Assembly: GCA_048538235.1 (NCBI GenBank)
Contig: JBLYPX010000001.1
Location: forward strand, 328,013 to 392,012
Direction of reading: 5' to 3'
Source of the DNA: Candidatus Komeilibacteria bacterium
Lineage (GTDB): Bacteria > Patescibacteriota > Patescibacteriia > UBA1558
DNA: 64,000 nucleotides
The notes beneath the pieces were generated by a model, which saw only the letters and a program-made list of their open reading frames with translations, ran no database searches and had not been told where the DNA came from. Made by a program: the position numbers and the translations under genes. Below are positions 1,450 to 32,097 of this stretch, piece by piece (positions within the stretch are counted from its first letter, which is position 1; each line of letters begins with the position of its first letter).

Positions 1450-1854
1450 ATGAGTCAAGGTGGTATTAAAAGTTTCTATTATTCCAAGTATTTCTTACTA
1501 ATTATATTTGTAATTATTATATTTTTTTTATTCTCAGCTGTTAAAGATTATTATTCACAGGAAGATCTTAGAGAAGATATTAGTACCTTAGATTCACAGA
1601 TTAATGACTTACAAGCGCAGCAAACAGATTTGATTGCTACTCTAGCTCAAGTACAAAGTGAAGACTTTGTGGAAACAGAGGCTAGAACAAGACTTAATCT
1701 TCGTAAACCGGGTGAAAAGGTAATTATTGTATCTAGTGATGAGGATGTACAAAGATTAAATGACCAAGCTGGAGATAAGGGCATTAAAGATTTACTAGAA
1801 GAGCCAGATACTAATTCTAGTAAATGGTGGTCATATTTTTTTCCAGATTTTTAA
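1450..1854 (+). CDS. ftsB: Septum formation initiator (FtsB/DivIC-like) protein
   Basis: N-terminal TM helix, then a coiled coil and the ARTRLNLRKPGEKVIIV motif typical of FtsB/DivIC. Confidence 0.55.
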   Translation: MSQGGIKSFYYSKYFLLIIFVIIIFFLFSAVKDYYSQEDLREDISTLDSQINDLQAQQTDLIATLAQVQSEDFVETEARTRLNLRKPGEKVIIVSSDEDVQRLNDQAGDKGIKDLLEEPDTNSSKWWSYFFPDF

Positions 1855-1855
1855 T

Positions 1856-1931
1856 TGGAGCCAATGGGGGGAATCGAACCCACGACCTTTCCCTTACGAA
1901 GGGACTGCTCTACCAACTGAGCTACATTGGC
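1856..1931 (-). tRNA. tRNA-Thr (anticodon CGT)
   Basis: Reverse complement GCCAATGTAGCTCAGTTGGTAGAGCAGTCCCTTCGTAAGGGAAAGGTCGTGGGTTCGATTCC...ATTGGCTCCA. Cloverleaf with 7-bp acceptor stem, anticodon loop TTCGTAA, encoded CCA. Confidence 0.85.
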
Positions 1932-2005
1932 TGGAGCGGGTAACGGGAATCGAACCCGTACTTCATCCTTGGGAAGGATACGTTCTACCACTAAACCATA
2001 CCCGC
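1932..2005 (-). tRNA. tRNA-Gly (anticodon CCC)
   Basis: Reverse complement GCGGGTATGGTTTAGTGGTAGAACGTATCCTTCCCAAGGATGAAGTACGGGTTCGATTCCCGTTACCCGCTCCA. Anticodon loop TTCCCAA, encoded CCA. Confidence 0.85.
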
Positions 2006-2041
2006 AGAAAGCTTTTAGAATTATATTATATATACTATTAA

Positions 2042-17755: not shown

Positions 17756-18817
17756 ATGTTTAAAAAGAAAAAAATAAAAGTTGCGGTAGGACTATCTGGT
17801 GGAGTAGATTCATCAGTAGCTGCATATATATTATCTAAGGATCCTCGTTATGAAGTGGTGGGTATATATATGCGTAACTGGTCAGAAGAATTACCAGAAA
17901 TTAAAGGATGTCCTTGGGAAACAGATCAAAGAGATGCTCAACTGGTAGCAGCTCAGCTTAATATACCTTTTTATGTAGTTAATTTTGAGAAAGAATATTA
18001 CGATAGAGTAGTTACATATATGATAAATACATATAAAAATGGACAGACTCCAAATCCAGATATTATGTGTAATCAAGAAATAAAGTTTGGAGTATTTTTA
18101 GATAAGATGTTAAAGCTTGGTTTTGACAAGGTAGCAACAGGCCATTATGCCAGAGTAGATAGAAAAGGTAAGGAATATTTTCTAAAAGCTGGACTAGATA
18201 ATAATAAAGATCAATCATATTTCTTATGCAGATTAAATCAACAGCAATTATCTAAAACACTATTTCCAATAGGAGACACAGATAAATCAAAGGTAAGGGA
18301 AATTGCTAAAGAAATTGGTTTAACAACCGCTACTAAAAAAGATTCACAAGGTATTTGCTTTATTGGCAATATTAAAGTTAGAGATTTCCTTAAAAGATAT
18401 ATTAAAGGAACTCCTGGTAATATTGTAGATATGGATAATAAAATAGTTGGTAAGCATGAGGGTGTGGAGTTCTTTACAATTGGTCAAAGAGAAGGATTGG
18501 ACGTTGGTGGTACAGGACCATACTATGTTGTGTCTAGAGATTTAAAGACAGGGGATTTAAAAGTTACTAATGATCCTGAAGATAAAGCTTTGTTTAAAAA
18601 AAATATTGAGCTTGAAAATATAAACTGGATAAACAAGCCAAAGAAGTTTCCATTTAACTGTGGCGTTAGAATTAGATACCGTCATGCTATTGTAGATTGT
18701 ACAGTTGAAAAAGATAAAATAATATTTAAAGAAGAACAAAAAGCAGTAACACCGGGACAATCTGCTGCTTTATACATAGCAGACAAATTAATAGGTTCAG
18801 GAATTATTAAAGAATAG
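17756..18817 (+). CDS. mnmA: tRNA 2-thiouridylase MnmA
   Basis: PP-loop VGLSGGVDSSVAAYIL and a MnmA C-terminal domain. Confidence 0.9.
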   Translation: MFKKKKIKVAVGLSGGVDSSVAAYILSKDPRYEVVGIYMRNWSEELPEIKGCPWETDQRDAQLVAAQLNIPFYVVNFEKEYYDRVVTYMINTYKNGQTPNPDIMCNQEIKFGVFLDKMLKLGFDKVATGHYARVDRKGKEYFLKAGLDNNKDQSYFLCRLNQQQLSKTLFPIGDTDKSKVREIAKEIGLTTATKKDSQGICFIGNIKVRDFLKRYIKGTPGNIVDMDNKIVGKHEGVEFFTIGQREGLDVGGTGPYYVVSRDLKTGDLKVTNDPEDKALFKKNIELENINWINKPKKFPFNCGVRIRYRHAIVDCTVEKDKIIFKEEQKAVTPGQSAALYIADKLIGSGIIKE

Positions 18818-18822
18818 CTATT

Positions 18823-18851
18823 TTCATATATTTAATATAGATGATATACTG
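18823..18851 (+). promoter_or_regulatory. Putative promoter of mini-ORF unit A (shares 20/21 nt with the TA-locus promoter at 29709-29729)
   Basis: TTCATA-16 nt-TATACT. The TATAGATGATATACT+GTAAT block is identical to the one at 29709. Confidence 0.4.
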
Positions 18852-18902
18852 TAATCAATGTCTCCATGTAAACCGGTAACCAAAGAAAAGGAGGTAAAGC
18901 TT

Positions 18903-18965
18903 ATGCTTGTACTCATTTTGGAAATTACCAGTCCTCTCGCCGGAAACAAGGAAGCCTCAATGTAG
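18903..18965 (+). CDS. Mini-ORF A (20 codons, MLVLILEITSPLAGNKEASM)
   Basis: Perfect SD AAGGAGGTA 8 nt upstream of ATG. Followed by an intrinsic terminator. Confidence 0.3.
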   Translation: MLVLILEITSPLAGNKEASM

Positions 18966-18993
18966 CCACAGATCGCGCTACGGAGAAAAAACC

Positions 18994-19025
18994 GAGCCCT
19001 CTCAATGTCAGAGGGCTCTTTCATT
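18994..19025 (+). terminator. Intrinsic terminator of unit A
   Basis: GAGCCCTCT-CAATGTC-AGAGGGCTC then TTTCATTT. Confidence 0.65.
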
Positions 19026-19123
19026 TGCTTAAAAAAGTAATAAAATATATAATTAATACATCCTTAAAGGATGTTTTTTAGTTCATTGGTTTTAACATGG
19101 TGTTAAACAAGGAGGTATAGCCT

Positions 19124-19168
19124 ATGTACACGAACAATTTTACCGCAACGCTGGACGTCAGCAACTGA
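19124..19168 (+). CDS. Mini-ORF B (14 codons, MYTNNFTATLDVSN)
   Basis: SD AAGGAGGTA 8 nt upstream. The leader is 16/18 identical to the unit A leader. A terminator follows. Confidence 0.25.
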   Translation: MYTNNFTATLDVSN

Positions 19169-19196
19169 TCAATCGTCGAAACCTGAAAAGTGAACT

Positions 19197-19230
19197 GAGC
19201 CCCCAACTTCTATGAAGAGGGGCTCTTTAA
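19197..19230 (+). terminator. Intrinsic terminator of unit B
   Basis: GAGCCCC...GGGGCTC stem followed by TTTAATTT. Confidence 0.5.
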
Positions 19231-19284
19231 TTTACATTTTTAGCTAATATTAGCCATATTTATATAATATTAACAGCTAAAACC

Positions 19285-19313
19285 TTGACAGAATTAAGAA
19301 AATAGTGTAAGTT
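19285..19313 (+). promoter_or_regulatory. Putative promoter ahead of the GC-rich leader (unit C)
   Basis: TTGACA-17 nt-TAAGTT. Upstream palindrome GCTAATATTAGC at 19243-19254. Confidence 0.3.
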
Positions 19314-19349
19314 CATTTTATCGCACATTTTATATTAATAGTAAAAAAA

Positions 19350-19838
19350 GCCTGATCAGGGCTGGTATGCGCATTAAAAGATCGGAAATTGCCGATGGTG
19401 CGCGAGTGCCAGCAGTTCTGCTTGCGTGATCGCAAGCCGACATGAGGCCGCGTTGAATCTTTGTAGCAAACTTGGGCAATACAAAGAGGATAATCTGCGT
19501 TATTCGCATATGAATCTAAACGACGGTAGAAGTGCCCTGGATGAACAACCTGCTTGGTCCCATACCCGGACGCATCATCGTGCGTAACGGTCCAGGTAAC
19601 TATAGCCTGGCTGACCAGCAGGAATCTGCCTACGGGAAAGGGCGGGAATTTGGCTGAAGCGAGACAGCATCGAAAAGCTTCTGGCCCCGGTTTGTTCGCA
19701 TGCCCGGCACGTAAAGTGGTGCCTGGATCTCATAACGTCTCAGACTTGAGTCGTTTATCATCCGCGAACATCTCCCGCCCTACCCGTTATCAAGACAAGT
19801 TCAACATCTTATTCCAACAACCTGACAAAGGAGGTAAA
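19350..19838 (+). ncRNA. GC-rich (~50% vs ~30% background), hairpin-dense non-coding leader or structured RNA of unknown class
   Basis: Neither strand has an ORF of 60 codons or more except an SD-less, compositionally odd 96-codon frame. Many local stems, for example CTTGCG-TGAT-CGCAAG (19421-19436), ACGCA-TCATCG-TGCGT (19570-19585), CCAGG-TAACTATAG-CCTGG (19592-19610). Confidence 0.3.
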
Positions 19839-19840
19839 TC

Positions 19841-19951
19841 ATGAATTTTTCACGTGGTAGTCCTAATGGCTTCAATTCCTGCCGTAGTGCAGTTAAAGCC
19901 AACATGACATCATCTTCGATCAACCTGGCCACCGGCGGTCGCATCGCCTGA
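19841..19951 (+). CDS. Mini-ORF C (36 codons, MNFSRGSPNGFNSCRSAVKANMTSSSINLATGGRIA)
   Basis: SD AAGGAGGTAAATC then ATG. Lies at the 3' end of the GC-rich leader. A terminator follows. Confidence 0.3.
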   Translation: MNFSRGSPNGFNSCRSAVKANMTSSSINLATGGRIA

Positions 19952-20011
19952 CCCAACACCCCGGAGAACATCCATGACACTGCCTGAACCTTTTTACTAG
20001 CTATGCAACAA

Positions 20012-20046
20012 TAAAAGACCGAGCAAACAAACGCTCGGTTTTTTTC
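20012..20046 (+). terminator. Intrinsic terminator of unit C, upstream of alaS
   Basis: ACCGAGC-AAACAAAC-GCTCGGT followed by a 7-T run. Confidence 0.7.
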
Positions 20047-20084
20047 TTGCTTTTTTAGCTAAAATATATATACTAAATATTACT

Positions 20085-21830
20085 ATGATTACTACCAAAG
20101 AATTAAGAAATAAATATTTGGACTTCTTTAAGTCTAAAAATCACGCCATTATTGATGGTGCTTGTTTGATTCCAGAAAACGATCCATCTGTACTATTTAC
20201 AACAGCTGGTATGCATCCTTTGGTGCCATATTTACTTGGAGAAAAACATCCAGCTGGAACAAAACTAACAGATTTCCAGAAATGTATTAGAACAGGAGAT
20301 ATTGATGAAGTTGGAGATAATGGTCACTTAACTTTCTTTGAAATGCTTGGTAATTGGTCACTGGGTGAGTATTTTAAGAAAGAAGCTATTGAAATGAGCT
20401 TTGAATTCTTAACCAAAGAATTAGGAATAGATATATCTAAATTAGCAGTTTCTGTTTTTGCTGGAGACAATGATTCTCCTAAAGATGTAGAATCTGCACA
20501 GATTTGGATGAGCTTAGGTGTTTCTGAAGATAGAATTGCATATTTAGGTAAAGAAGATAATTGGTGGGGTCCTGCTGGTATTACTGGTCCTTGTGGACCA
20601 GATAGTGAGATGTTCTATTGGACAGGCAAGGAAGAGGCACCAGCTAAATTTGACCCAGCAGACGATAGATGGCTTGAAATATGGAATGATGTGTTTATGC
20701 AATACAATAAAGCTGAAGATGGTAAATATATTCCTTTGGAACAAAAGAATGTAGATACAGGCATGGGTTTAGAAAGAACTGTCGCTATTCTAAATGGTTA
20801 CGATAATGTCTATGAAGTAGATACTATTAAACCTATCTATGATGAAGTTAAGTCTTTAGTTGAAGATAAAGATAATGTTAGAGCTATTAGAATAATTACA
20901 GATCATATTCGTGCAGCAGTTATGATTATAGGAGACGATAGAGGAGCAAGTCCTTCTAATGTAGATCAAGGTTACGTTGTTAGAAGACTCATTCGTTCAG
21001 CTATTAGAAGAAGTAGGGAAGTTGGTGCTCCAGATGATTGTGTTTTTAAAGTTGCAACTAAAGTTATTGAAGTAAGTAAAGAACTATATCCTGAGATAGA
21101 AAATAACAGACAAAGAGTATTGTCAGAAATTAAAGTTGAAACAGAAAAGTTTTCTAAAGTTTTAGGTAAGGGTGAAGAAATGGTTAAGGAATACATTAAA
21201 GACGGTAAGATTGATGCTAATGAAGCCTTTCAACTATATACAACCTATGGTTTTCCAATTGAAGAAATACAAAGATTGGGTGTTGAAGTAGATATGGCTG
21301 GTTTTCAAAAGCAGATTAAAGATCATCAAGATTTATCTAGAAAAGGTGCTGAACAAAAATTTAAAGGTGGTTTAGCAGATAATTCTGAAGAAACAACTGC
21401 ACTCCATACTGCAACTCATCTATTACATGCAGCTCTACGTAAAGTTTTAGGCGATCATGTAGCTCAGAAAGGTTCAAACATTACTGCAGATAGAGCCCGT
21501 TTTGACTTTTCCCATCCAGATAAGCTTACTGATGAAGAAAAGGAAAAAGTCACTAATATGATCAATGAAGTTATTGATGCTAAATTACCAGTTTCGGTTG
21601 AAGAAATGACTGTTGAAGAAGCAAAAAATGCTGGAGCTTTAGGTCTTTTTAACCAAAAATATGGGGATAAAGTTAAAGTATATACAGTCGGAGAGGGAAA
21701 TAATGTCTTTTCAAGAGAGATTTGTGGCGGTCCTCATGTTAAAAATACAGCTGATTTAGGGCATTTTCGTATAAAAAAAGAAGAAGCTTCATCTGCAGGT
21801 ATTAGACGTATTAAAGCAGTGCTGGAATAA
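20085..21830 (+). CDS. alaS: Alanyl-tRNA synthetase, short form lacking the C-Ala domain
   Basis: Class II catalytic core (FTTAGMHPLVPY, FFEMLGNWSLGEYFK) plus editing domain HTATHLLHAAL. Ends at 581 aa. Confidence 0.85.
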   Translation: MITTKELRNKYLDFFKSKNHAIIDGACLIPENDPSVLFTTAGMHPLVPYLLGEKHPAGTKLTDFQKCIRTGDIDEVGDNGHLTFFEMLGNWSLGEYFKKEAIEMSFEFLTKELGIDISKLAVSVFAGDNDSPKDVESAQIWMSLGVSEDRIAYLGKEDNWWGPAGITGPCGPDSEMFYWTGKEEAPAKFDPADDRWLEIWNDVFMQYNKAEDGKYIPLEQKNVDTGMGLERTVAILNGYDNVYEVDTIKPIYDEVKSLVEDKDNVRAIRIITDHIRAAVMIIGDDRGASPSNVDQGYVVRRLIRSAIRRSREVGAPDDCVFKVATKVIEVSKELYPEIENNRQRVLSEIKVETEKFSKVLGKGEEMVKEYIKDGKIDANEAFQLYTTYGFPIEEIQRLGVEVDMAGFQKQIKDHQDLSRKGAEQKFKGGLADNSEETTALHTATHLLHAALRKVLGDHVAQKGSNITADRARFDFSHPDKLTDEEKEKVTNMINEVIDAKLPVSVEEMTVEEAKNAGALGLFNQKYGDKVKVYTVGEGNNVFSREICGGPHVKNTADLGHFRIKKEEASSAGIRRIKAVLE

Positions 21831-25974: not shown

Positions 25975-26370
25975 ATGAAAAACGCTTATAAATGGCTGTT
26001 GATTACATTTAGTGTTGTTATATACACCCTGATGATAATCTCGGGTGTACATCTCAAATTCTGGGAAATTTTCACCAGAGGAAATGTTTGGACAATGCTA
26101 TTACTAATAGTTTTGTTCCTAACAGTGTTTGTTGCTCGTCTTCTGGTGTATATCGCCAGTAAATGGGGAACAGCTCCGTGTAATCCAGTTGCTTTCGGTA
26201 TCGGAGTAGGAGTGTTTGTTGTTCTGAATATATTTCCATCAACAAGGGAATTGTTCTTTTTTAGACCGGCAGCTGGTATCGCCACCATAATTATGGTTAT
26301 TACAGATCTTCATGTAATGGCTAACTATATTATGGACGATGACAAAATTTACAATTCAGCTGAAAGTTAG
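25975..26370 (+). CDS. Integral membrane protein (4 TM), function unknown
   Basis: SD AAGGAGGGG, four hydrophobic helices, own terminator. Confidence 0.55.
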   Translation: MKNAYKWLLITFSVVIYTLMIISGVHLKFWEIFTRGNVWTMLLLIVLFLTVFVARLLVYIASKWGTAPCNPVAFGIGVGVFVVLNIFPSTRELFFFRPAAGIATIIMVITDLHVMANYIMDDDKIYNSAES

Positions 26371-26387
26371 TCGCTCTTTTCAAAATG

Positions 26388-26417
26388 AAAACCACCTCAT
26401 TGTGAGGTGGTTTTTTT
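26388..26417. terminator. Bidirectional intrinsic terminator
   Basis: CCACCTCA-TTG-TGAGGTGG followed by a 7-T run. The complementary strand has an A-run. Overlaps the stop of the minus-strand gene. Confidence 0.7.
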
Positions 26418-26768
26418 GTTCTGCAAGTCATGAATATACCAAGCCATTATTGCGCTTGAATAAAAGGCAATGCTTGGTAAAAAAGCAAAGGCAAATTTGA
26501 ATGACCAGGATATGTTTTCAACATTCGTGTAAACAGATTCTGGATCAACAAACCATCTTAGCATTCCACCTAGAAAGATTCCAATTCCTAGTAGTGCTAA
26601 TAGTATTTTTCCACTAGGTACATTGTAGAATTTAGGAGCCAGTACAAAAGCAGATAGTGCAAAGAATGGTGAGAAGGTAATGTTTCCTAAGTACCCTGGA
26701 ATTCCACCAAATACTACGTAAATCAGGGGTAGGATTAAAACATGGAAATATCTTTTGTCGGTTATCAT
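26397..26768 (-). CDS. Integral membrane protein (4 TM), function unknown
   Basis: Start chosen at MITDKRY, which has SD AAGGAG. The ORF-track start at 26822 has no SD. Confidence 0.5.
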   Translation of the reverse strand: MITDKRYFHVLILPLIYVVFGGIPGYLGNITFSPFFALSAFVLAPKFYNVPSGKILLALLGIGIFLGGMLRWFVDPESVYTNVENISWSFKFAFAFLPSIAFYSSAIMAWYIHDLQNKKTTSQ

Positions 26769-26844
26769 TTTATTCTCCTTTGTATATTTCATTGTCAAAT
26801 AGCTAGTAGGAAATATTAACATGAAGCCCTGTATCAGTCAAGAC

Positions 26845-26878
26845 TAAAACAAAAACCGCTTCGATGTTCTGAAGCGGT
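26845..26878 (-). terminator. Intrinsic terminator of the 26888-27328 gene
   Basis: ACCGCTTC-AGAACATC-GAAGCGGT with a T-run on the minus strand. Confidence 0.7.
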
Positions 26879-26887
26879 CAATATGAC

Positions 26888-27328
26888 TTAGCCAGTCATA
26901 TCTTTACAATTCTTCTCGAATTGCTTGTATTCGTGTTGTTCTTCGGTGATCATTTTTTCCTTGCGAACATAGTTCCAGGCACCCAAGACAGCACCAATGA
27001 TTGAAAAGAACATACTCATAAGAGCGGCACTGAATCTCACCAATAATGTTTCAAGAACTGGTGAGAGAACTGTGTTTGGATTGTATACCTCTACATCAAA
27101 TGTAGATAAATATATTCCAGCCACAAGTGTTCCGAAAAGCCATGGGATTATAGAATGTATATCCCCAAGACGTAAAGCTGAATAACCAAGTACAAATGCT
27201 ATTAATGACACTATCCACCAAGATAGGTATGGATCGTGCCTAACTGCAGTACTGACAAAAAAAGCTGCTAGGGCAAATAACACCATTAGTGTTCTGCCTG
27301 GCTCAACATCCCAACCTCTTTCACTCAT
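26888..27328 (-). CDS. Integral membrane protein (4 TM), function unknown
   Basis: SD GGAGGA and hydrophobic helices. Confidence 0.55.
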   Translation of the reverse strand: MSERGWDVEPGRTLMVLFALAAFFVSTAVRHDPYLSWWIVSLIAFVLGYSALRLGDIHSIIPWLFGTLVAGIYLSTFDVEVYNPNTVLSPVLETLLVRFSAALMSMFFSIIGAVLGAWNYVRKEKMITEEQHEYKQFEKNCKDMTG

Positions 27329-27460
27329 TGTATTTCCTCCATTTAAATAATGTACGATTAGTAATACAAATTACCATGGATACACACTAAAGTCAATATA
27401 TTATTGACAATAATATATAATTGTGTTAATCTACACAGAACTTTGAAATAGGGGGTAGAT

Positions 27461-27661
27461 ATGGAATCTACAAAGCTACAAAAAATGCGTAAAGCTACCT
27501 TCATGAAAATTTGTCGTGAAGAAGGTGTCGTAGGTAATGCTGCAGAACACTTGTGGGAAATAATAAGTATTAACCCATGTAGCATACTAAATACTGATCC
27601 ATCATCAAAAGAATGGGTTAGAAAAATTGCCAAAGAAACATTAGTACTTTGGAGAAAATGA
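27461..27661 (+). CDS. Small basic protein, paralog 1 (66 aa)
   Basis: SD GGGGGT. Clear similarity to the next ORF (KICREEG...AEHLW...SIL..DPS.EWVRK.AK..L). Confidence 0.5.
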   Translation: MESTKLQKMRKATFMKICREEGVVGNAAEHLWEIISINPCSILNTDPSSKEWVRKIAKETLVLWRK

Positions 27662-27668
27662 GGAGTTC

Positions 27669-27872
27669 ATGTATAGACCAAAAAGATTACCCAGACGCAA
27701 ATTTATTCAAATTTGTACAGAACAAGGTTTAGATAAATATACAGCTGAAAATTTGTATCTTCGTCTTAAATCTAAAAGGAAAATTCTGTTGGTAAATACA
27801 CCAAGTAATGTAGACTGGATAAGAGCCAGTGCTAGAAAAGCAGCTCTTCGCCAGGCGAAAAGCAAAACCTAA
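27669..27872 (+). CDS. Small basic protein, paralog 2 (67 aa)
   Basis: SD GAGGAG. Sequence QICTEQG...AENLY...ILLVNTPSNVDWIRASARKAAL. Confidence 0.5.
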   Translation: MYRPKRLPRRKFIQICTEQGLDKYTAENLYLRLKSKRKILLVNTPSNVDWIRASARKAALRQAKSKT

Positions 27873-27876
27873 TTTA

Positions 27877-27906
27877 GGTTCATGATTAATTCATGGACCT
27901 TTTTTA
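27877..27906 (+). terminator. Intrinsic terminator after the paralog pair
   Basis: GGTTCATGA-TTAAT-TCATGGACC followed by a T-run. Confidence 0.6.
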
Positions 27907-27913
27907 TTTAAAT

Positions 27914-27950
27914 TAAAACCCAGCTAACTTTCGCTAGCTGGGCTGTTTTT
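27914..27950. terminator. Bidirectional intrinsic terminator
   Basis: CCCAGCTA-ACTTTCGC-TAGCTGGG with U-runs on both strands. Confidence 0.65.
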
Positions 27951-28779
27951 AAAACAGTGAAATAATGTCATTACCAAGAGATAGGACAACTAGTAAAACT
28001 ACCAGTATTACACCAATATTTTCAAAGGCCTTGTTTATTGTTGGGCTTATATTCTTAATATATGCTCCAACAATTCGTCCGCCGTCTAATGGAAACAATG
28101 GTAATGTGTTTAATAGTCCAATAGCAAGTGTTAATGTCATTGTTAATGACAGAAAGTCTACAAAACCATTAACAGTACCATTGGTCATATTAAAGATAGC
28201 AATAGGGCCACCAAATACGTCTCCTGTTGCAGATCCACCATCAACTGCACCTTTTAGACCATTACCAATACTATTAGCAGCAAGATCTGCAGAAATAGCA
28301 TCTCCTGTCATAGCTATTACAGCAAGTAGTCCAAGAATTGCCAGCACAGGCATAATTACATAGCTAAAAAATCTTTTAGCTAGCAATACCATTCCAAGTG
28401 CAAATAATAGCATCCAGAGATGGGGGATGAAAAATCCATACAGAATGGATAAGATCATTCCTAAAACCAGACCAAGACAATAGTTTGCCCAAGGGCCAGA
28501 ACCAGATATTACAACATTATCCTTAAGAGATATTTCCTCCCATATGTTAGATTTCTCCGGTTTAACATAAGCCATCACAACTAGAGGACTAAAAGTAACC
28601 GGACAATCAAAGTACTTACTGTACGTTTTTATGGTTAACCATTTAACTGGTACGCCAATTCCAATTGAGTTAATCTTAACACCACGTTTTCTCATTTCAT
28701 ATGCATGTGCAAATTCATGAACAGTGGCACTTATTCCAAAAGCAAAAAGCAGTATAGCGAATGTTAATAGTGAGGTCAT
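27949..28779 (-). CDS. Site-2 protease family (M50) zinc metalloprotease, short form without PDZ
   Basis: HEFAHA (HExxH) in TM1 and LFPLDGGRI (LDG motif). Polytopic membrane protein. Confidence 0.75.
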   Translation of the reverse strand: MTSLLTFAILLFAFGISATVHEFAHAYEMRKRGVKINSIGIGVPVKWLTIKTYSKYFDCPVTFSPLVVMAYVKPEKSNIWEEISLKDNVVISGSGPWANYCLGLVLGMILSILYGFFIPHLWMLLFALGMVLLAKRFFSYVIMPVLAILGLLAVIAMTGDAISADLAANSIGNGLKGAVDGGSATGDVFGGPIAIFNMTNGTVNGFVDFLSLTMTLTLAIGLLNTLPLFPLDGGRIVGAYIKNISPTINKAFENIGVILVVLLVVLSLGNDIISLF

Positions 28780-28897
28780 AACCTCCTCCTTTTATTTCAT
28801 GTTTAATGTTAATGAGCCAACAAAATACATTAGCATATATTTACATATTTGTCAATATTCTTTTGACTTTTTTACTTTAACAAGAGATAATTAGTCC

Positions 28898-29614
28898 ATG
28901 GATATAATATTATTAGACACAGAAACAACTGGTGTAGAACCAAATGCAAGACTAGTACAACTTGCATATAAAAACCTCAGTACAGGTAAATCTGTAAATG
29001 AGTATTTTAAGCCACCAATTCCTATTAGCATCAATGCTATGGCTACACACCATATTACGAATAGGGAAGTTGAAGATAAGCCAGCTTTTATTGGTTCAGA
29101 GTGTCAAAAAGAGATAAATAGACTATTACCTAAAAATATATTAGTTGCCCATAATGCATTATATGACATGACTATCTTAAGAAATGAAGATGTGGCTATC
29201 GGTAAATATATAGATACATTAAGATTGTCTAAGCATTTAATAGAGTCTGAAGCATATAATATGCAGTACTTAAGATATTTCCTGGATTTAAATGTTACAG
29301 CACTTGCACATAATGCAATGGGGGATGTAGCTGTACTGGAAGCTTTATTTAATCATTTGAAAGAACTTGTTAAAAAGAAGTTAAATGTTTCTTCAGATGA
29401 AGATATTTATACAGCGATGCTAGATTTAACACAGCAACCTGTATTATTAAAGACATTAATGTTTGGTAAGTATAAGGGTAAAACCTTTGCAGATGTGTTA
29501 GAATATGATAGAAATTACTTACAATGGCTATATGATGAACAGATGAAGAATGATGAGATAGACAGAAATGAGGATCTTGTTTATACCTTGAAGGAATATT
29601 TACAAGTTAGATAG
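28898..29614 (+). CDS. DEDDh 3'-5' exonuclease (DnaQ/ExoX-like) with C-terminal DUF3820-like domain
   Basis: Exo I LLDTETTG, Exo II VAHNALYDM, Exo III HNAMGDVAVLEALF. The C-terminal FGKYKGKTFADVLEYDRNYLQWL is DUF3820-like. Confidence 0.72.
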   Translation: MDIILLDTETTGVEPNARLVQLAYKNLSTGKSVNEYFKPPIPISINAMATHHITNREVEDKPAFIGSECQKEINRLLPKNILVAHNALYDMTILRNEDVAIGKYIDTLRLSKHLIESEAYNMQYLRYFLDLNVTALAHNAMGDVAVLEALFNHLKELVKKKLNVSSDEDIYTAMLDLTQQPVLLKTLMFGKYKGKTFADVLEYDRNYLQWLYDEQMKNDEIDRNEDLVYTLKEYLQVR

Positions 29615-29653
29615 TATTTGACATTGTTAAACTTACGCTGTAAGTTATTAGCG

Positions 29654-29689
29654 AACAGGGTCGTTGGTATTTTGCCAACCCTGTTTTTT
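29654..29689 (+). terminator. Intrinsic terminator after the exonuclease gene
   Basis: AACAGGGT...ACCCTGTT followed by a 6-T run. Confidence 0.65.
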
Positions 29690-29695
29690 ATTAGT

Positions 29696-29741
29696 TTGAC
29701 AAAATACATATAGATGATATACTTGTAATACATTGTATTAC
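29696..29741 (+). promoter_or_regulatory. Promoter (TTGACA-16-TATACT) plus a perfect palindromic operator GTAATACA-T-TGTATTAC for the TA operon
   Basis: Inverted repeat at 29725-29741 immediately after the -10 element, typical of an antitoxin autoregulation site. Confidence 0.55.
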
Positions 29742-29758
29742 AGTATTAAATAAATAAT

Positions 29759-29974
29759 ATGCGTGAAATATTAAATTTATCTTTGCCTAGTGAGATGGCT
29801 CAATCTGTTAAAAAGGCTGTAAAAAAAGGTCAGTATGCCAGTACCAGTGAATTTATTCGTAGTCTTATTCGTGATTGGCAGGAAAGTCAATTATTATCTC
29901 AGTTAGAGCAAAGTCAAACACAAATTAAACAAGGTAATTCCAGGGTCTTAAAATCTCTTAGAGATTTGCGTTAA
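29759..29974 (+). CDS. Type II antitoxin, ParD/RHH-like
   Basis: 71 aa. The motif SEFIRSLIRDW resembles ParD antitoxins. Directly upstream of the toxin gene. Confidence 0.65.
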   Translation: MREILNLSLPSEMAQSVKKAVKKGQYASTSEFIRSLIRDWQESQLLSQLEQSQTQIKQGNSRVLKSLRDLR

Positions 29975-29983
29975 AGACCAATT

Positions 29984-30241
29984 ATGGAAATAATATATTC
30001 AAATAGATTTAGTCGTATGTATAAAAAGTTGCCTACAGAAGTTAAGTTAGAGGCAGAGAAGAGAGAGATTATTTTTCGTAAAAATCCATTTGCGTCAGTT
30101 TTAAAAACTCATAAGCTAGCAGGTCGCTTAAAAGACTTTTGGTCTTTTTCAATAAATTATAAGTATAGGATTATATTTGAGTTTGGTACTGACAATATTG
30201 TTTATTTCCATTGGGTTGGTCAACATAGGATATATATCTAA
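29984..30241 (+). CDS. Type II toxin, RelE/ParE family
   Basis: 85 aa. The KLPTEVKLEAEKREIIFRKNPF...YRIIFEF pattern is typical of ParE/RelE. Confidence 0.7.
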   Translation: MEIIYSNRFSRMYKKLPTEVKLEAEKREIIFRKNPFASVLKTHKLAGRLKDFWSFSINYKYRIIFEFGTDNIVYFHWVGQHRIYI

Positions 30242-30298
30242 ATAATAGTTATTCTCGGTGTAGTATTTTACGATAGGTTTGTAAAATAATATATAAGT

Positions 30299-30326
30299 AA
30301 AAAACCCAGTCGTTTGACCGGGTTTT
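30299..30326 (-). terminator. Intrinsic terminator, copy 1 of an identical 28-nt repeat
   Basis: AAAAAACCCAGTCGTTTGACCGGGTTTT. The hairpin CCCGGTCAAACGACTGGG plus U-run sits on the minus strand, downstream of gene 30345-30731. Confidence 0.7.
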
Positions 30327-30344
30327 CATTTCTGATACTAAGTT

Positions 30345-30731
30345 TTATTCGTCAATATTTGCTACAGTGCGCTTTGCTATAAGTTTTACCAACATGTAAG
30401 TCGAAATATAACTTATGGTAAATCCTGCAATTGGAATTAATACCTCTGGAAAGGTACTCATTTTAATTGTAGTGGTTGCTGGCGAGATGATATATACGAA
30501 TATACCACCTGTAATAAAGCCGAGTAGGGATGGTGTTGGAATCATTTCGTGTAACTTTTTATACGTTACCAAACCTGTAAATGTTCCTTTCATCATGGCA
30601 AATACCACGAGTGAAGTAATGAGCGTAACTCTTTCTGGCTCGTCTATTATAGCTGAGCTAAACATTCCTTGTACAATAACACCTACAGTAAATAGAAATA
30701 GCCATATATTGACTCTTTGGATGCCATTCAT
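30345..30731 (-). CDS. Integral membrane protein (4 TM), function unknown
   Basis: SD TAAGGAGG. Hydrophobic helices. Terminator copy 1 downstream. Confidence 0.55.
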   Translation of the reverse strand: MNGIQRVNIWLFLFTVGVIVQGMFSSAIIDEPERVTLITSLVVFAMMKGTFTGLVTYKKLHEMIPTPSLLGFITGGIFVYIISPATTTIKMSTFPEVLIPIAGFTISYISTYMLVKLIAKRTVANIDE

Positions 30732-30818
30732 TGTGTACCTCCTTATTCTTAGTATATTTAATTATTAATGTGTGAATAATTTACATTAGCAAATAATCGT
30801 GGATTTGTCAATGTAAAC

Positions 30819-30846
30819 AAAAAACCCAGTCGTTTGACCGGGTTTT
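30819..30846 (-). terminator. Intrinsic terminator, copy 2 of the identical 28-nt repeat
   Basis: Same 28-nt sequence as at 30299-30326, downstream of the 32-codon peptide gene. Confidence 0.7.
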
Positions 30847-30879
30847 TAAAAAAGCTTTAAGCTTCATGTTTTCCTTGTA

Positions 30880-30978
30880 TCAGGAGAAAAGCTGAACAAG
30901 AATAACAATGATGGAGGCTACGATTCCGATAAAAACAAGCGTTGGGTATTTCGTTGTGATTGTGATTTTTACAGTCAT
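30880..30978 (-). CDS. Small single-TM peptide (32 aa, MTVKITITTKYPTLVFIGIVASIIVILVQLFS)
   Basis: SD AAGGAGGATAAA then ATG. Hydrophobic C-terminal helix and its own terminator. Below the ORF-track cutoff. Confidence 0.4.
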   Translation of the reverse strand: MTVKITITTKYPTLVFIGIVASIIVILVQLFS

Positions 30979-30997
30979 TTTATCCTCCTTAGGATAA

Positions 30998-31303
30998 TTA
31001 TTCGTTTAAAAACATTGAGGGTGTGTATGTTACATCATATACATCATGTGTGCCCACGTTGAGTATTACATAGGGCATTGGTGTATGCAGTGCTGGATCA
31101 TTCAGTAGTATTCTAAGTTCAGCTTCTACATCTGGCGGATTCACCATTTTATCTATGTAAGATATTATTGGTATTGAATCTGTAATACCGTTGGTGTAGA
31201 TATTACCCAGAGTATCTATGAATTCAATTACTACTGCGTTAGCCCAAACTGTAATAAGAAAGAATCTTACTACATTTGAAAACCTACTAAAAGTCCAATT
31301 CAT
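30998..31303 (-). CDS. Hypothetical protein (101 aa) with N-terminal hydrophobic segment
   Basis: SD AAGGAGGATGAA then ATG. The upstream context ATCCTAAGGAGGAT is a duplicate of that of the 32-aa peptide. Confidence 0.5.
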   Translation of the reverse strand: MNWTFSRFSNVVRFFLITVWANAVVIEFIDTLGNIYTNGITDSIPIISYIDKMVNPPDVEAELRILLNDPALHTPMPYVILNVGTHDVYDVTYTPSMFLNE

Positions 31304-31396
31304 TTCATCCTCCTTAGGATATTTATTTAATTGTCAAAAATCTTATTAATAGGGTAGTATAGCATATATTTACTAATTTGTCAATAGTGGTATAAT

Positions 31397-31606
31397 ATGT
31401 TTATGAAACATTTATCTGGCTTTGTGCCTGTAAATTTAAACCTTGTAGGTAAGATTCTATTAATATTAGGCTTAATTATTTTAATATTAAAAATAGGGTC
31501 TTTAACTATATGGTTATTTACTATGCCCGGTGTACTATTATTCATTGGTGTTTGTAGTATTATTGTTGGCATATATTTAATATATATTGTTCCTAAGATA
31601 GATTAG
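31397..31606 (+). CDS. Small two-TM membrane protein (69 aa)
   Basis: Preceded by TTGTCAATAGTGG-TATAAT. No SD, so possibly a leaderless mRNA. Confidence 0.4.
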   Translation: MFMKHLSGFVPVNLNLVGKILLILGLIILILKIGSLTIWLFTMPGVLLFIGVCSIIVGIYLIYIVPKID

Positions 31607-31686
31607 AGCTAGAATTGACAATTAAGCATACCTGTGCTAATTTACACTATTCATTGAACATATTAACAATAGAGGAGGAATAGACA

Positions 31687-32097
31687 ATGAAGTGGCTATT
31701 TTTACTGTTAAAAGTACTTCATTCATTTTTCATGGATGTTGTGGAGGTTTGCTTAGCCTTTGTACAAATGGGCAAGTTGTTTATTAAAAGTTTTGTTATT
31801 GCAACGCTTTTAATAACAATGAGTATCCCGGGTGCAATGCTTGACCGCAAACTACATGAGATGGGTCAAGACAATAAGACGGTATATGATATTGTTATGA
31901 CTCTTGATGCAATGGCATTCTTTTCAAACGGTGGTGGCTTCTTTGGAGCTAGTCAGAACTATTTTGGCTGGGCTTATGCCAAAGCAACTGCTGATAAGAA
32001 TCGTTCAGCATTGAGTAAGGTATTGTTTTGGGAAAATCCCTTTTATGTTACACAACCACCAGATGAGTGGCCGTACTATTACAGGGGTGAAGGATAA
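31687..32097 (+). CDS. Secreted or membrane-anchored hypothetical protein
   Basis: SD GAGGAGG. N-terminal hydrophobic region. No recognisable domain. Confidence 0.5.
   Translation: MKWLFLLLKVLHSFFMDVVEVCLAFVQMGKLFIKSFVIATLLITMSIPGAMLDRKLHEMGQDNKTVYDIVMTLDAMAFFSNGGGFFGASQNYFGWAYAKATADKNRSALSKVLFWENPFYVTQPPDEWPYYYRGEG

Follow-up and report, generated by a model that had tools for sequence, protein, structure and literature searches.

A predicted large structured RNA that matches no described family, in a narrow clade of Candidatus Komeilibacteria

Bacterial RNAs with a conserved structured core of several hundred nucleotides are rare, and those whose functions are known (ribosomal RNAs, RNase P, group I/II introns, tmRNA) carry out central biochemistry. 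Next to these stand a number of orphan large ncRNAs (OLE, ROOL, GOLLD, HEARO, raiA), which are several hundred nucleotides long, have many helices supported by covariation and lack a known function; new orphan classes such as OLE, GOLLD and ROOL have each become a target for structural and functional work. In the CPR bacteria, which have tiny genomes and are uncultured, the non-coding RNA content is almost unexplored. We have analyzed a GC-rich element from this group that resembles the orphan RNAs in being an apparently independent transcription unit and a GC-rich island in a long spacer of an AT-rich genome, but that matches none of their Rfam models, is found only in one narrow clade at one fixed locus, and carries a Shine-Dalgarno (SD) hairpin and a variable mini-ORF near its 3' end. 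With bacterial RNase P RNA (RF00010), including the diverged CPR forms reported by Lui et al. 2021 (PMC8172020), it shares the size, the GC-richness, a promoter and terminator of its own and ends that can pair. Dual-function regulatory RNAs such as S. aureus RNAIII (hld) or B. subtilis SR1 are likewise generally long and hairpin-rich and carry a short SD-led ORF. However, the peptide encoded here is not conserved and is missing in one lineage, no target pairing region was identified, and there is no sequence relation. The element also recalls tmRNA in its paired ends, its internal short ORF and its position next to alaS, whose product charges tmRNA. Nevertheless, it has no tRNA-like domain, T-arm or CCA end, and its ORF has an SD and an AUG, which tmRNA tags lack.

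The element was studied in a stretch of 64,000 nucleotides (the window) from a Candidatus Komeilibacteria (CPR/Patescibacteria) genome, and it lies in the spacer between mnmA and a short alaS, which is followed by infA and ribosomal protein genes (Table 1). A preliminary description of the sequence had pointed to a GC-rich, hairpin-dense non-coding segment of about 500 nt and had left open whether this was an unclassified large ncRNA or a long riboswitch-like leader controlling the mini-ORF at its 3' end (mini-ORF C). The observation itself was confirmed. The GC content is 0.515-0.545 in 200-nt windows across 19400-19799, against 0.316 for the whole 64 kb, and the only places that reach at least 46% GC in 150-nt windows are a tRNA pair, a small cassette in the same spacer (unit 1) and the GC-rich block itself. 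The statements on the longest ORF, the promoter, the SD, the mini-ORF and the terminator were correct, and the five short perfect stems that had been listed were all found at or next to the positions given. Three of these are helices of the consensus structure (H6, H10 and H11). The stem CTGG-CTGA-CCAG overlaps H11 and is not kept in a close relative (L095, see below), which has CTGGCTGGTTAG, whereas GCAG-GAAT-CTGC is kept in two relatives (L095 and L082) but not in two others (L081 and L141). The description nevertheless needs correction in that the element is longer than was reported and runs from the promoter to the terminator, in that one of the five stems is not conserved, and in that the start of the mini-ORF lies inside an RNA hairpin.

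Table 1. Positions of the features in the 64,000-nt window.
Feature	Position	Strand	Description
tRNA pair	1801-2030		GC-rich
mnmA	17756-18817
Spacer	18818-20084		1267 nt
Unit 1	18861-19030		Small GC-rich cassette
Promoter	19285-19313	+	Sigma-70-type; -35 TTGACA (19285-19290), 17-nt spacer, -10 TAAGTT (19308-19313); transcription start inferred near 19320
GC-rich block	19311-20070		At least 46% GC in 150-nt windows
Leader block	19339-19350	+	UAGUAAAAAAAG; proposed 5' strand of terminal helix P1
hp1	19350-19362	+	Small 5' hairpin, GCCUGAUCAGGGC
5' domain	19361-19625	+	H3, H6, H7-H9, H10 and H11
H3	19361-19413	+
H6	19417-19440	+	Contains listed stem 19421-19436
H7/H8/H9	19447-19527	+	Three-way junction
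Longest ORF	19554-19844		96 aa, TTG start
H10	19566-19590	+	Contains listed stem 19570-19585
H11	19592-19610	+	CCAGGU/GCCUGG, loop AACUAUA; listed stem at the same position
CTGG-CTGA-CCAG	19607-19618		Listed stem overlapping H11
GCAG-GAAT-CTGC	19618-19629		Listed stem
3' domain	19629-19790	+	Closing helices H13 and H14 (UACGGG/CCCGUU and AGGGCGGG/CCCGCCCU) around hairpin H15 and around H16, which closes hairpins H17 and H18
P4-like helix (H14)	19639-19646 with 19774-19781	+
SD hairpin	19788-19866	+	UUAUCA...AAGUUCA pairs with UGAAUUU...UGGUAG; AUG (19841) at the base of the 3' strand
SD	19828-19836	+	AAAGGAGGU, in the loop of the SD hairpin
Mini-ORF C	19841-19951	+	36 codons, inside a variable GC-rich insert
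Tail block	19989-20001	+	CCUUUUUACUAGC; proposed 3' strand of P1
Terminator	20013-20044	+	Intrinsic; 12-pair stem followed by a U tract; transcript end inferred at about 20050
alaS	20085-21830		Short alaS

A comparison with related genomes showed that the element is conserved, but only among close relatives. The AlaRS of the window is 100% identical to a protein of a Candidatus Komeilibacteria MAG on an 860-kb contig. Among GTDB species representatives the best AlaRS is only 57% identical, and none of the 80 loci recovered holds the RNA. AlaRS and IF-1 homologues taken from a large protein collection, and the contigs that encode them, yielded four further lineages with the mnmA-spacer-alaS arrangement and the element: L095 (87% nucleotide identity to the window over the 4.5-kb mnmA-infA region), L082-L085 (AlaRS 86% identical), L081 (AlaRS 89% identical) and the divergent L141/L094 (AlaRS about 81% identical). 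Relatives a little further out lack it. L088 has a spacer of 44 nt and L087 one of 360 nt without a match to the RNA, while L086 and L090 have long spacers with other content; no homologue was found in the spacers of L086, L090 and L087, even by covariance model searches with filters off. Pattern scans of the JGI metagenome collection, which evidently lacks the L095 contig, gave no hits with a first pattern and 45 hits in high-GC contigs with a second, none of which was confirmed by nhmmer. Three scans of viral contigs gave 0, 2 (chance) and 0 hits, and blastn of the spacer and the RNA found no match in E. coli genomes, phages or plasmids. The family is therefore known from five lineages of one narrow clade, two of them close, so that there are few independent comparisons.

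The element matches no described RNA family. Rfam 15 found only three tRNAs in the window at gathering scores, and searches at gathering scores on five relatives, at E≤10 on sub-regions of 1601, 684 and 508 nt, and at E≤5 on four homologous loci gave only chance-level hits to unrelated families. There were no hits to SRP or 6S RNA, to the T-box leader (RF00230), to known riboswitch classes (cobalamin, lysine, glmS and others) or to OLE, ROOL, GOLLD, HEARO or raiA, and ARAGORN found only three tRNAs and no tmRNA.

The alignment of the homologous loci revealed a common anatomy. The promoter is conserved in all five lineages as TTGACA-17-TAAGTT/TAATGT/TAATCT/TAAGGT. It is followed by a leader that ends in the invariant UAGUAAAAAG and by a small hairpin, which is invariant in four lineages and has a different sequence, GUUGUUGACAAC, in L141 that forms the same hairpin at the same place. 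This hairpin contradicts the long-range helices H1 and H2 that RNAalifold drew here, which have no covariation and are probably wrong. A 5' domain and a 3' domain then form the core, of about 450 nt. Between the core and the tail sits a variable insert that begins with the SD hairpin, and the element ends with the conserved tail, C(U/A)UUUUACUAG (CCAUUUUACUAGC in L141/L094), and an intrinsic terminator. The terminator is conserved, with one compensatory pair, in L095, L082 and L081, and L141 has an equivalent one at 2826-2852. The leader and tail blocks are complementary over 10 nt, with duplex energies of -7.3 to -12.0 kcal/mol against about -4±2 for shuffles, and they pair in the minimum free energy (MFE) folds of the full transcripts. 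This terminal helix (P1) is plausible, but it rests on conservation only, as it never covaries and has one mismatch in L141.

The pairing within the core is under selection. The + strand of the core has an MFE of -183.7 kcal/mol against -150.8±6.9 for dinucleotide shuffles (z = -4.7), whereas the - strand gives z = -3.35; for the full transcript of the window z is -4.0, and for L081 and L141 it is -6.6 and -7.3. On the four-sequence alignment with the RNAalifold consensus, 96.1% of cells are paired and 20 of 116 predicted pairs carry changes on both sides (H6 3, H7 2, H8 2, H9 1 and H11 1 among the helices of the 5' domain, where H10 never varies). In contrast, 500 column shuffles gave 7.1±1.9, none reaching 20, and sliding the partners by 1-3 columns gave 0-3. 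For the 3' domain, a covariance model built from three sequences (R1) found L095 at 133 bits and, with filters off, the divergent L141 over its full length at 21.7 bits (E = 3.7e-5 over the 1.2-kb spacer, 0.0011 in a search of four loci), although nhmmer misses L141. On the resulting alignment 31 of 53 pairs carry compensatory changes and 92.5% of cells pair, against 9.8±2.4 in shuffles (0/500) and 1-10 in slid controls. Although this alignment was fitted to the model, which favours pairing, the margin is large. Moreover, a model built without the window (R2) scores the window at 120.9 bits and nothing else in 1.03 Mb of other loci. Read by eye, the H11 stem changes to GACGGU/ACCGUC in L141 with the same loop, and the closing helices of the 3' domain change from ACGGG+GGGCGGG to ACGUGGA+GGGGCAG.

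The consensus pairs hold 35 G·U cells and 7 A·C cells, which points to the + strand as the folded one, in agreement with the direction of the promoter and terminator. There is no sign that the core codes for protein. Most indels against the window are not multiples of three (9 of 11, 14 of 17 and 15 of 20), every frame of every homologue has stops, and no ORF in the region has a Pfam hit, including the 96-aa ORF and a 191-aa antisense gene call in L141. The mini-ORF has 36, 37, 25 and 21 codons in the window, L095, L082 and L141, respectively, and is absent in L081, where the core joins the tail directly. The window and L095 differ by 2 synonymous and 5 non-synonymous codon changes plus one in-frame insertion, and the GC content of about 0.47-0.53 is unlike that of coding DNA here (about 0.32). 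Only the first 8 or so codons are alike, M-x-F-[SA]-R-[GC]-[SG]-P in the window, L095 and L141, whereas L082 (MNVRGSPS) lacks the F-[SA] pair. Those codons are the 3' strand of the covarying SD hairpin, for which L141 has UCCAC...AAACU pairing with AGUUU...GUGGA around its own SD and AUG, and which is absent in L081. The apparent conservation of the peptide is therefore an RNA constraint.

Taken together, these data support, with reasonable though not complete confidence, the reading as a stand-alone gene for a large structured non-coding RNA of a family not yet described, with an inferred transcript of about 0.55-0.73 kb. This reading rests on sequence comparison, without expression data or mapped ends. 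As to the mechanism, we can only infer that the RNA may act in trans through its folded shape, as a scaffold for a protein partner or as a catalytic RNA, although nothing points to a partner or a substrate. In four of the five lineages the SD hairpin would also let 30S subunits engage it, either to translate a short, unconstrained peptide or to dock the RNA on ribosomes, an engagement that is dispensable because L081 lacks it.

The main alternative, which we consider unlikely but cannot dismiss, is that of a dual-function RNA or long structured 5' UTR, in which the folded core controls access to the SD and AUG like a riboswitch or thermosensor and the peptide is the product that matters. In its favour, a perfect 9-nt SD and an AUG are kept in the window, L095 and L082 (L141 has a weaker SD), the AUG lies at the base of a conserved hairpin and the insertion in L095 is in frame; an SD plus AUG in four of five lineages indeed leaves room for a coding or dual role. 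However, L081 keeps the whole core without SD or ORF, the peptide varies in length and sequence, the codon changes between window and L095 do not show the purifying selection expected of an RNAIII-like ORF, and a core of about 450 nt is far larger than any known riboswitch aptamer. A cis-acting leader that controls read-through into alaS and the genes downstream is very improbable, even though the element lies directly upstream of alaS in four lineages, its terminator ends 40 nt before the alaS start and the alaS -35 element is weak (TTGCTT). No T-box sequence or antiterminator alternative was seen, the terminator is strong (12 pairs and 7 U), and a -10-like hexamer (TATACT/TATAAT) sits 7-10 nt before the alaS ATG in each lineage, as for many leaderless-looking genes of this genome. 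In addition, the order of modules in the spacer differs between lineages, being unit 1, unit 2, RNA in the window, unit 1, RNA in L082, unit 2, RNA in L081, and another unit, RNA, unit 2 in L141, where a cassette with its own terminator thus separates the RNA from alaS.

A highly diverged RNase P RNA had to be taken seriously, considering that Lui et al. 2021 could not detect RNase P RNA in 10 of 35 circular CPR genomes until bit-score cut-offs were lowered to 5. There are superficial likenesses, of GGGAAAGGGCGGG...CCCGCCCUA to what appear to be the P4 strands GGAAAGUCCGGG...CCCGGCUUA and of CCAGGUAAC...CCUGG possibly to E. coli P8, and no RNase P RNA was found in the window, which is however only 7% of the 860-kb contig. 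Nevertheless, RF00010/RF00011 gave no match among hits listed down to about 12 bits, although lower scores could not be excluded, nor at E≤5 in L141, L095 or L085. The topology does not fit either. The only P4-like helix, H14, encloses about 125 nt, and its neighbour H16 is nested inside it, with covariation, whereas in RNase P the P2 and P4 helices probably cross. The CR-I and CR-V motifs (probably GGAAAGUCC and CCGGCUUA) are not conserved across the five sequences and are not kept in L141, where the 5' domain is about 120 nt shorter and lacks H6-H9. Hence we regard this possibility as quite improbable. Least likely of all is a decayed foreign protein gene or other non-functional GC-rich insert. 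The foreign GC content, the narrow distribution and the fast evolution would be in line with it, but compensatory changes keep 92-96% of cells paired, the promoter and terminator are conserved, and neither Pfam nor blastn in the collections searched gave a match. We also rejected a DGR template or other repeat, as the spacer has no second copy in the window, a MITE, as the 10-bp inverted repeat of leader and tail belongs to a single-copy, orthologous element without target-site duplication, and a CsrB-like sponge, as the GGA count (8 by eye) is about what chance predicts.

Interestingly, AAGGAGGT occurs only four times in 64 kb, three of them in this spacer, while 43 of 56 long ORFs have no SD at all. 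A speculative possibility, which we consider rather unlikely but which is not excluded, is that the element represents a new class of large RNA, specific to one CPR lineage, that works through its fold as a ribozyme or as the RNA core of an unknown ribonucleoprotein and docks on the small ribosomal subunit through the exposed perfect SD loop. As most mRNAs in this genome have no SD, the anti-SD of 16S rRNA would be largely free to bind it.

Remarkably, the core evolves about as fast as synonymous sites. Its identity to the window is 0.79, 0.79, 0.66 and 0.45 for L095, L082, L081 and L141, respectively, whereas third-codon positions at identical residues in mnmA and alaS are 0.60-0.78 identical. 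The sequence thus changes about as fast as silent sites while the pairing is kept, and whole subdomains are gained and lost between close relatives, which is an unusual evolutionary mode and not what a universal housekeeping RNA does, but which fits a lineage-specific RNA whose shape matters more than its sequence.

The spacer between mnmA and alaS harbours two further small cassettes, units 1 and 2, each with a perfect SD (AAGGAGGT), a mini-ORF (of 20 and 14 codons, respectively) and an intrinsic terminator. Unit 1 is one of only three places in the window with a GC content of at least 46%. It is 82-88% identical in L095 and L082, two of the lineages that carry the large RNA at the same locus, and it shows no substitution at all from the SD to codon 8, whereas the changes after that are mostly non-synonymous. 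Unit 2 has relatives in L095 and in two other RNA-carrying lineages, L081 and L141/L094, with peptides such as MYTNNFTATLDVSN and MYRFNLIANTEEARIR. No covariation was found beyond the terminators, and the two units may represent either small proteins or sRNAs.

A comparison of the mnmA-alaS spacer in the window, L082, L081 and L141 and in the relatives that lack the RNA (L086, L090, L087 and L088) revealed that this spacer is a variable hot spot. Its length runs from 44 nt in L088 to about 1700 nt in L086, and the content and order of the cassettes differ between close relatives. L141 holds yet another terminator-bearing unit, whereas the long spacers of L086 and L090 have content that is unrelated to that of the window. 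The JGI contig that represents L095 (JGI 3300009451, contig Ga0127402_1003696) matches the first DNA pattern used to scan the metagenome contigs exactly, and yet it was not returned by that scan. The collection is therefore not complete for short contigs, and a zero result obtained from it is weak evidence of absence. Public gene calls inside the spacer look spurious. One of these is a 191-aa antisense ORF across the RNA in L141, which has no Pfam hit and is not conserved, and the other is a 77-aa ORF in L082 that merely extends the mini-ORF of unit 1 upstream.

Coordinates of the cassettes, gene calls and gene starts in the window and in related loci
Feature	Locus	Position	Strand
Unit 1	window	18858-19030	
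Unit 2	window	19085-19235	
Further terminator-bearing unit	L141	1890-2200	
Antisense ORF across the RNA (public gene call)	L141	2405-2980	-
ORF extending the unit 1 mini-ORF (public gene call)	L082	4468-4701	
Examples of gene starts considered for SD-like sequences	window	1450, 2042, 20085, 49166-, 62151-	
TATACT before alaS	window	20069-20074	
ATG of alaS	window	20085	
alaS	window	20085-21830	
Cluster of genes with a full GGAGG SD	window	25975-32097	

Considering the gene starts over the whole window, 43 of 56 long ORFs, including ribosomal protein genes, have no SD-like sequence within 22 nt of the start. Many have TATAAT or TATACT 7-10 nt before the ATG, which suggests widespread leaderless mRNAs, and alaS likewise looks leaderless. 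Interestingly, the few genes with a full GGAGG SD are clustered. They are small hypothetical ORFs on both strands, which hints at an accessory or horizontally acquired block with a different mode of translation initiation. The AlaRS encoded in the window is a short form of 581 aa that comprises tRNA-synt_2c plus tRNA_SAD only, whereas the calls of 707-717 aa in L086 and L090 (P0006, P0020) may be N-terminal over-extensions into the spacer.
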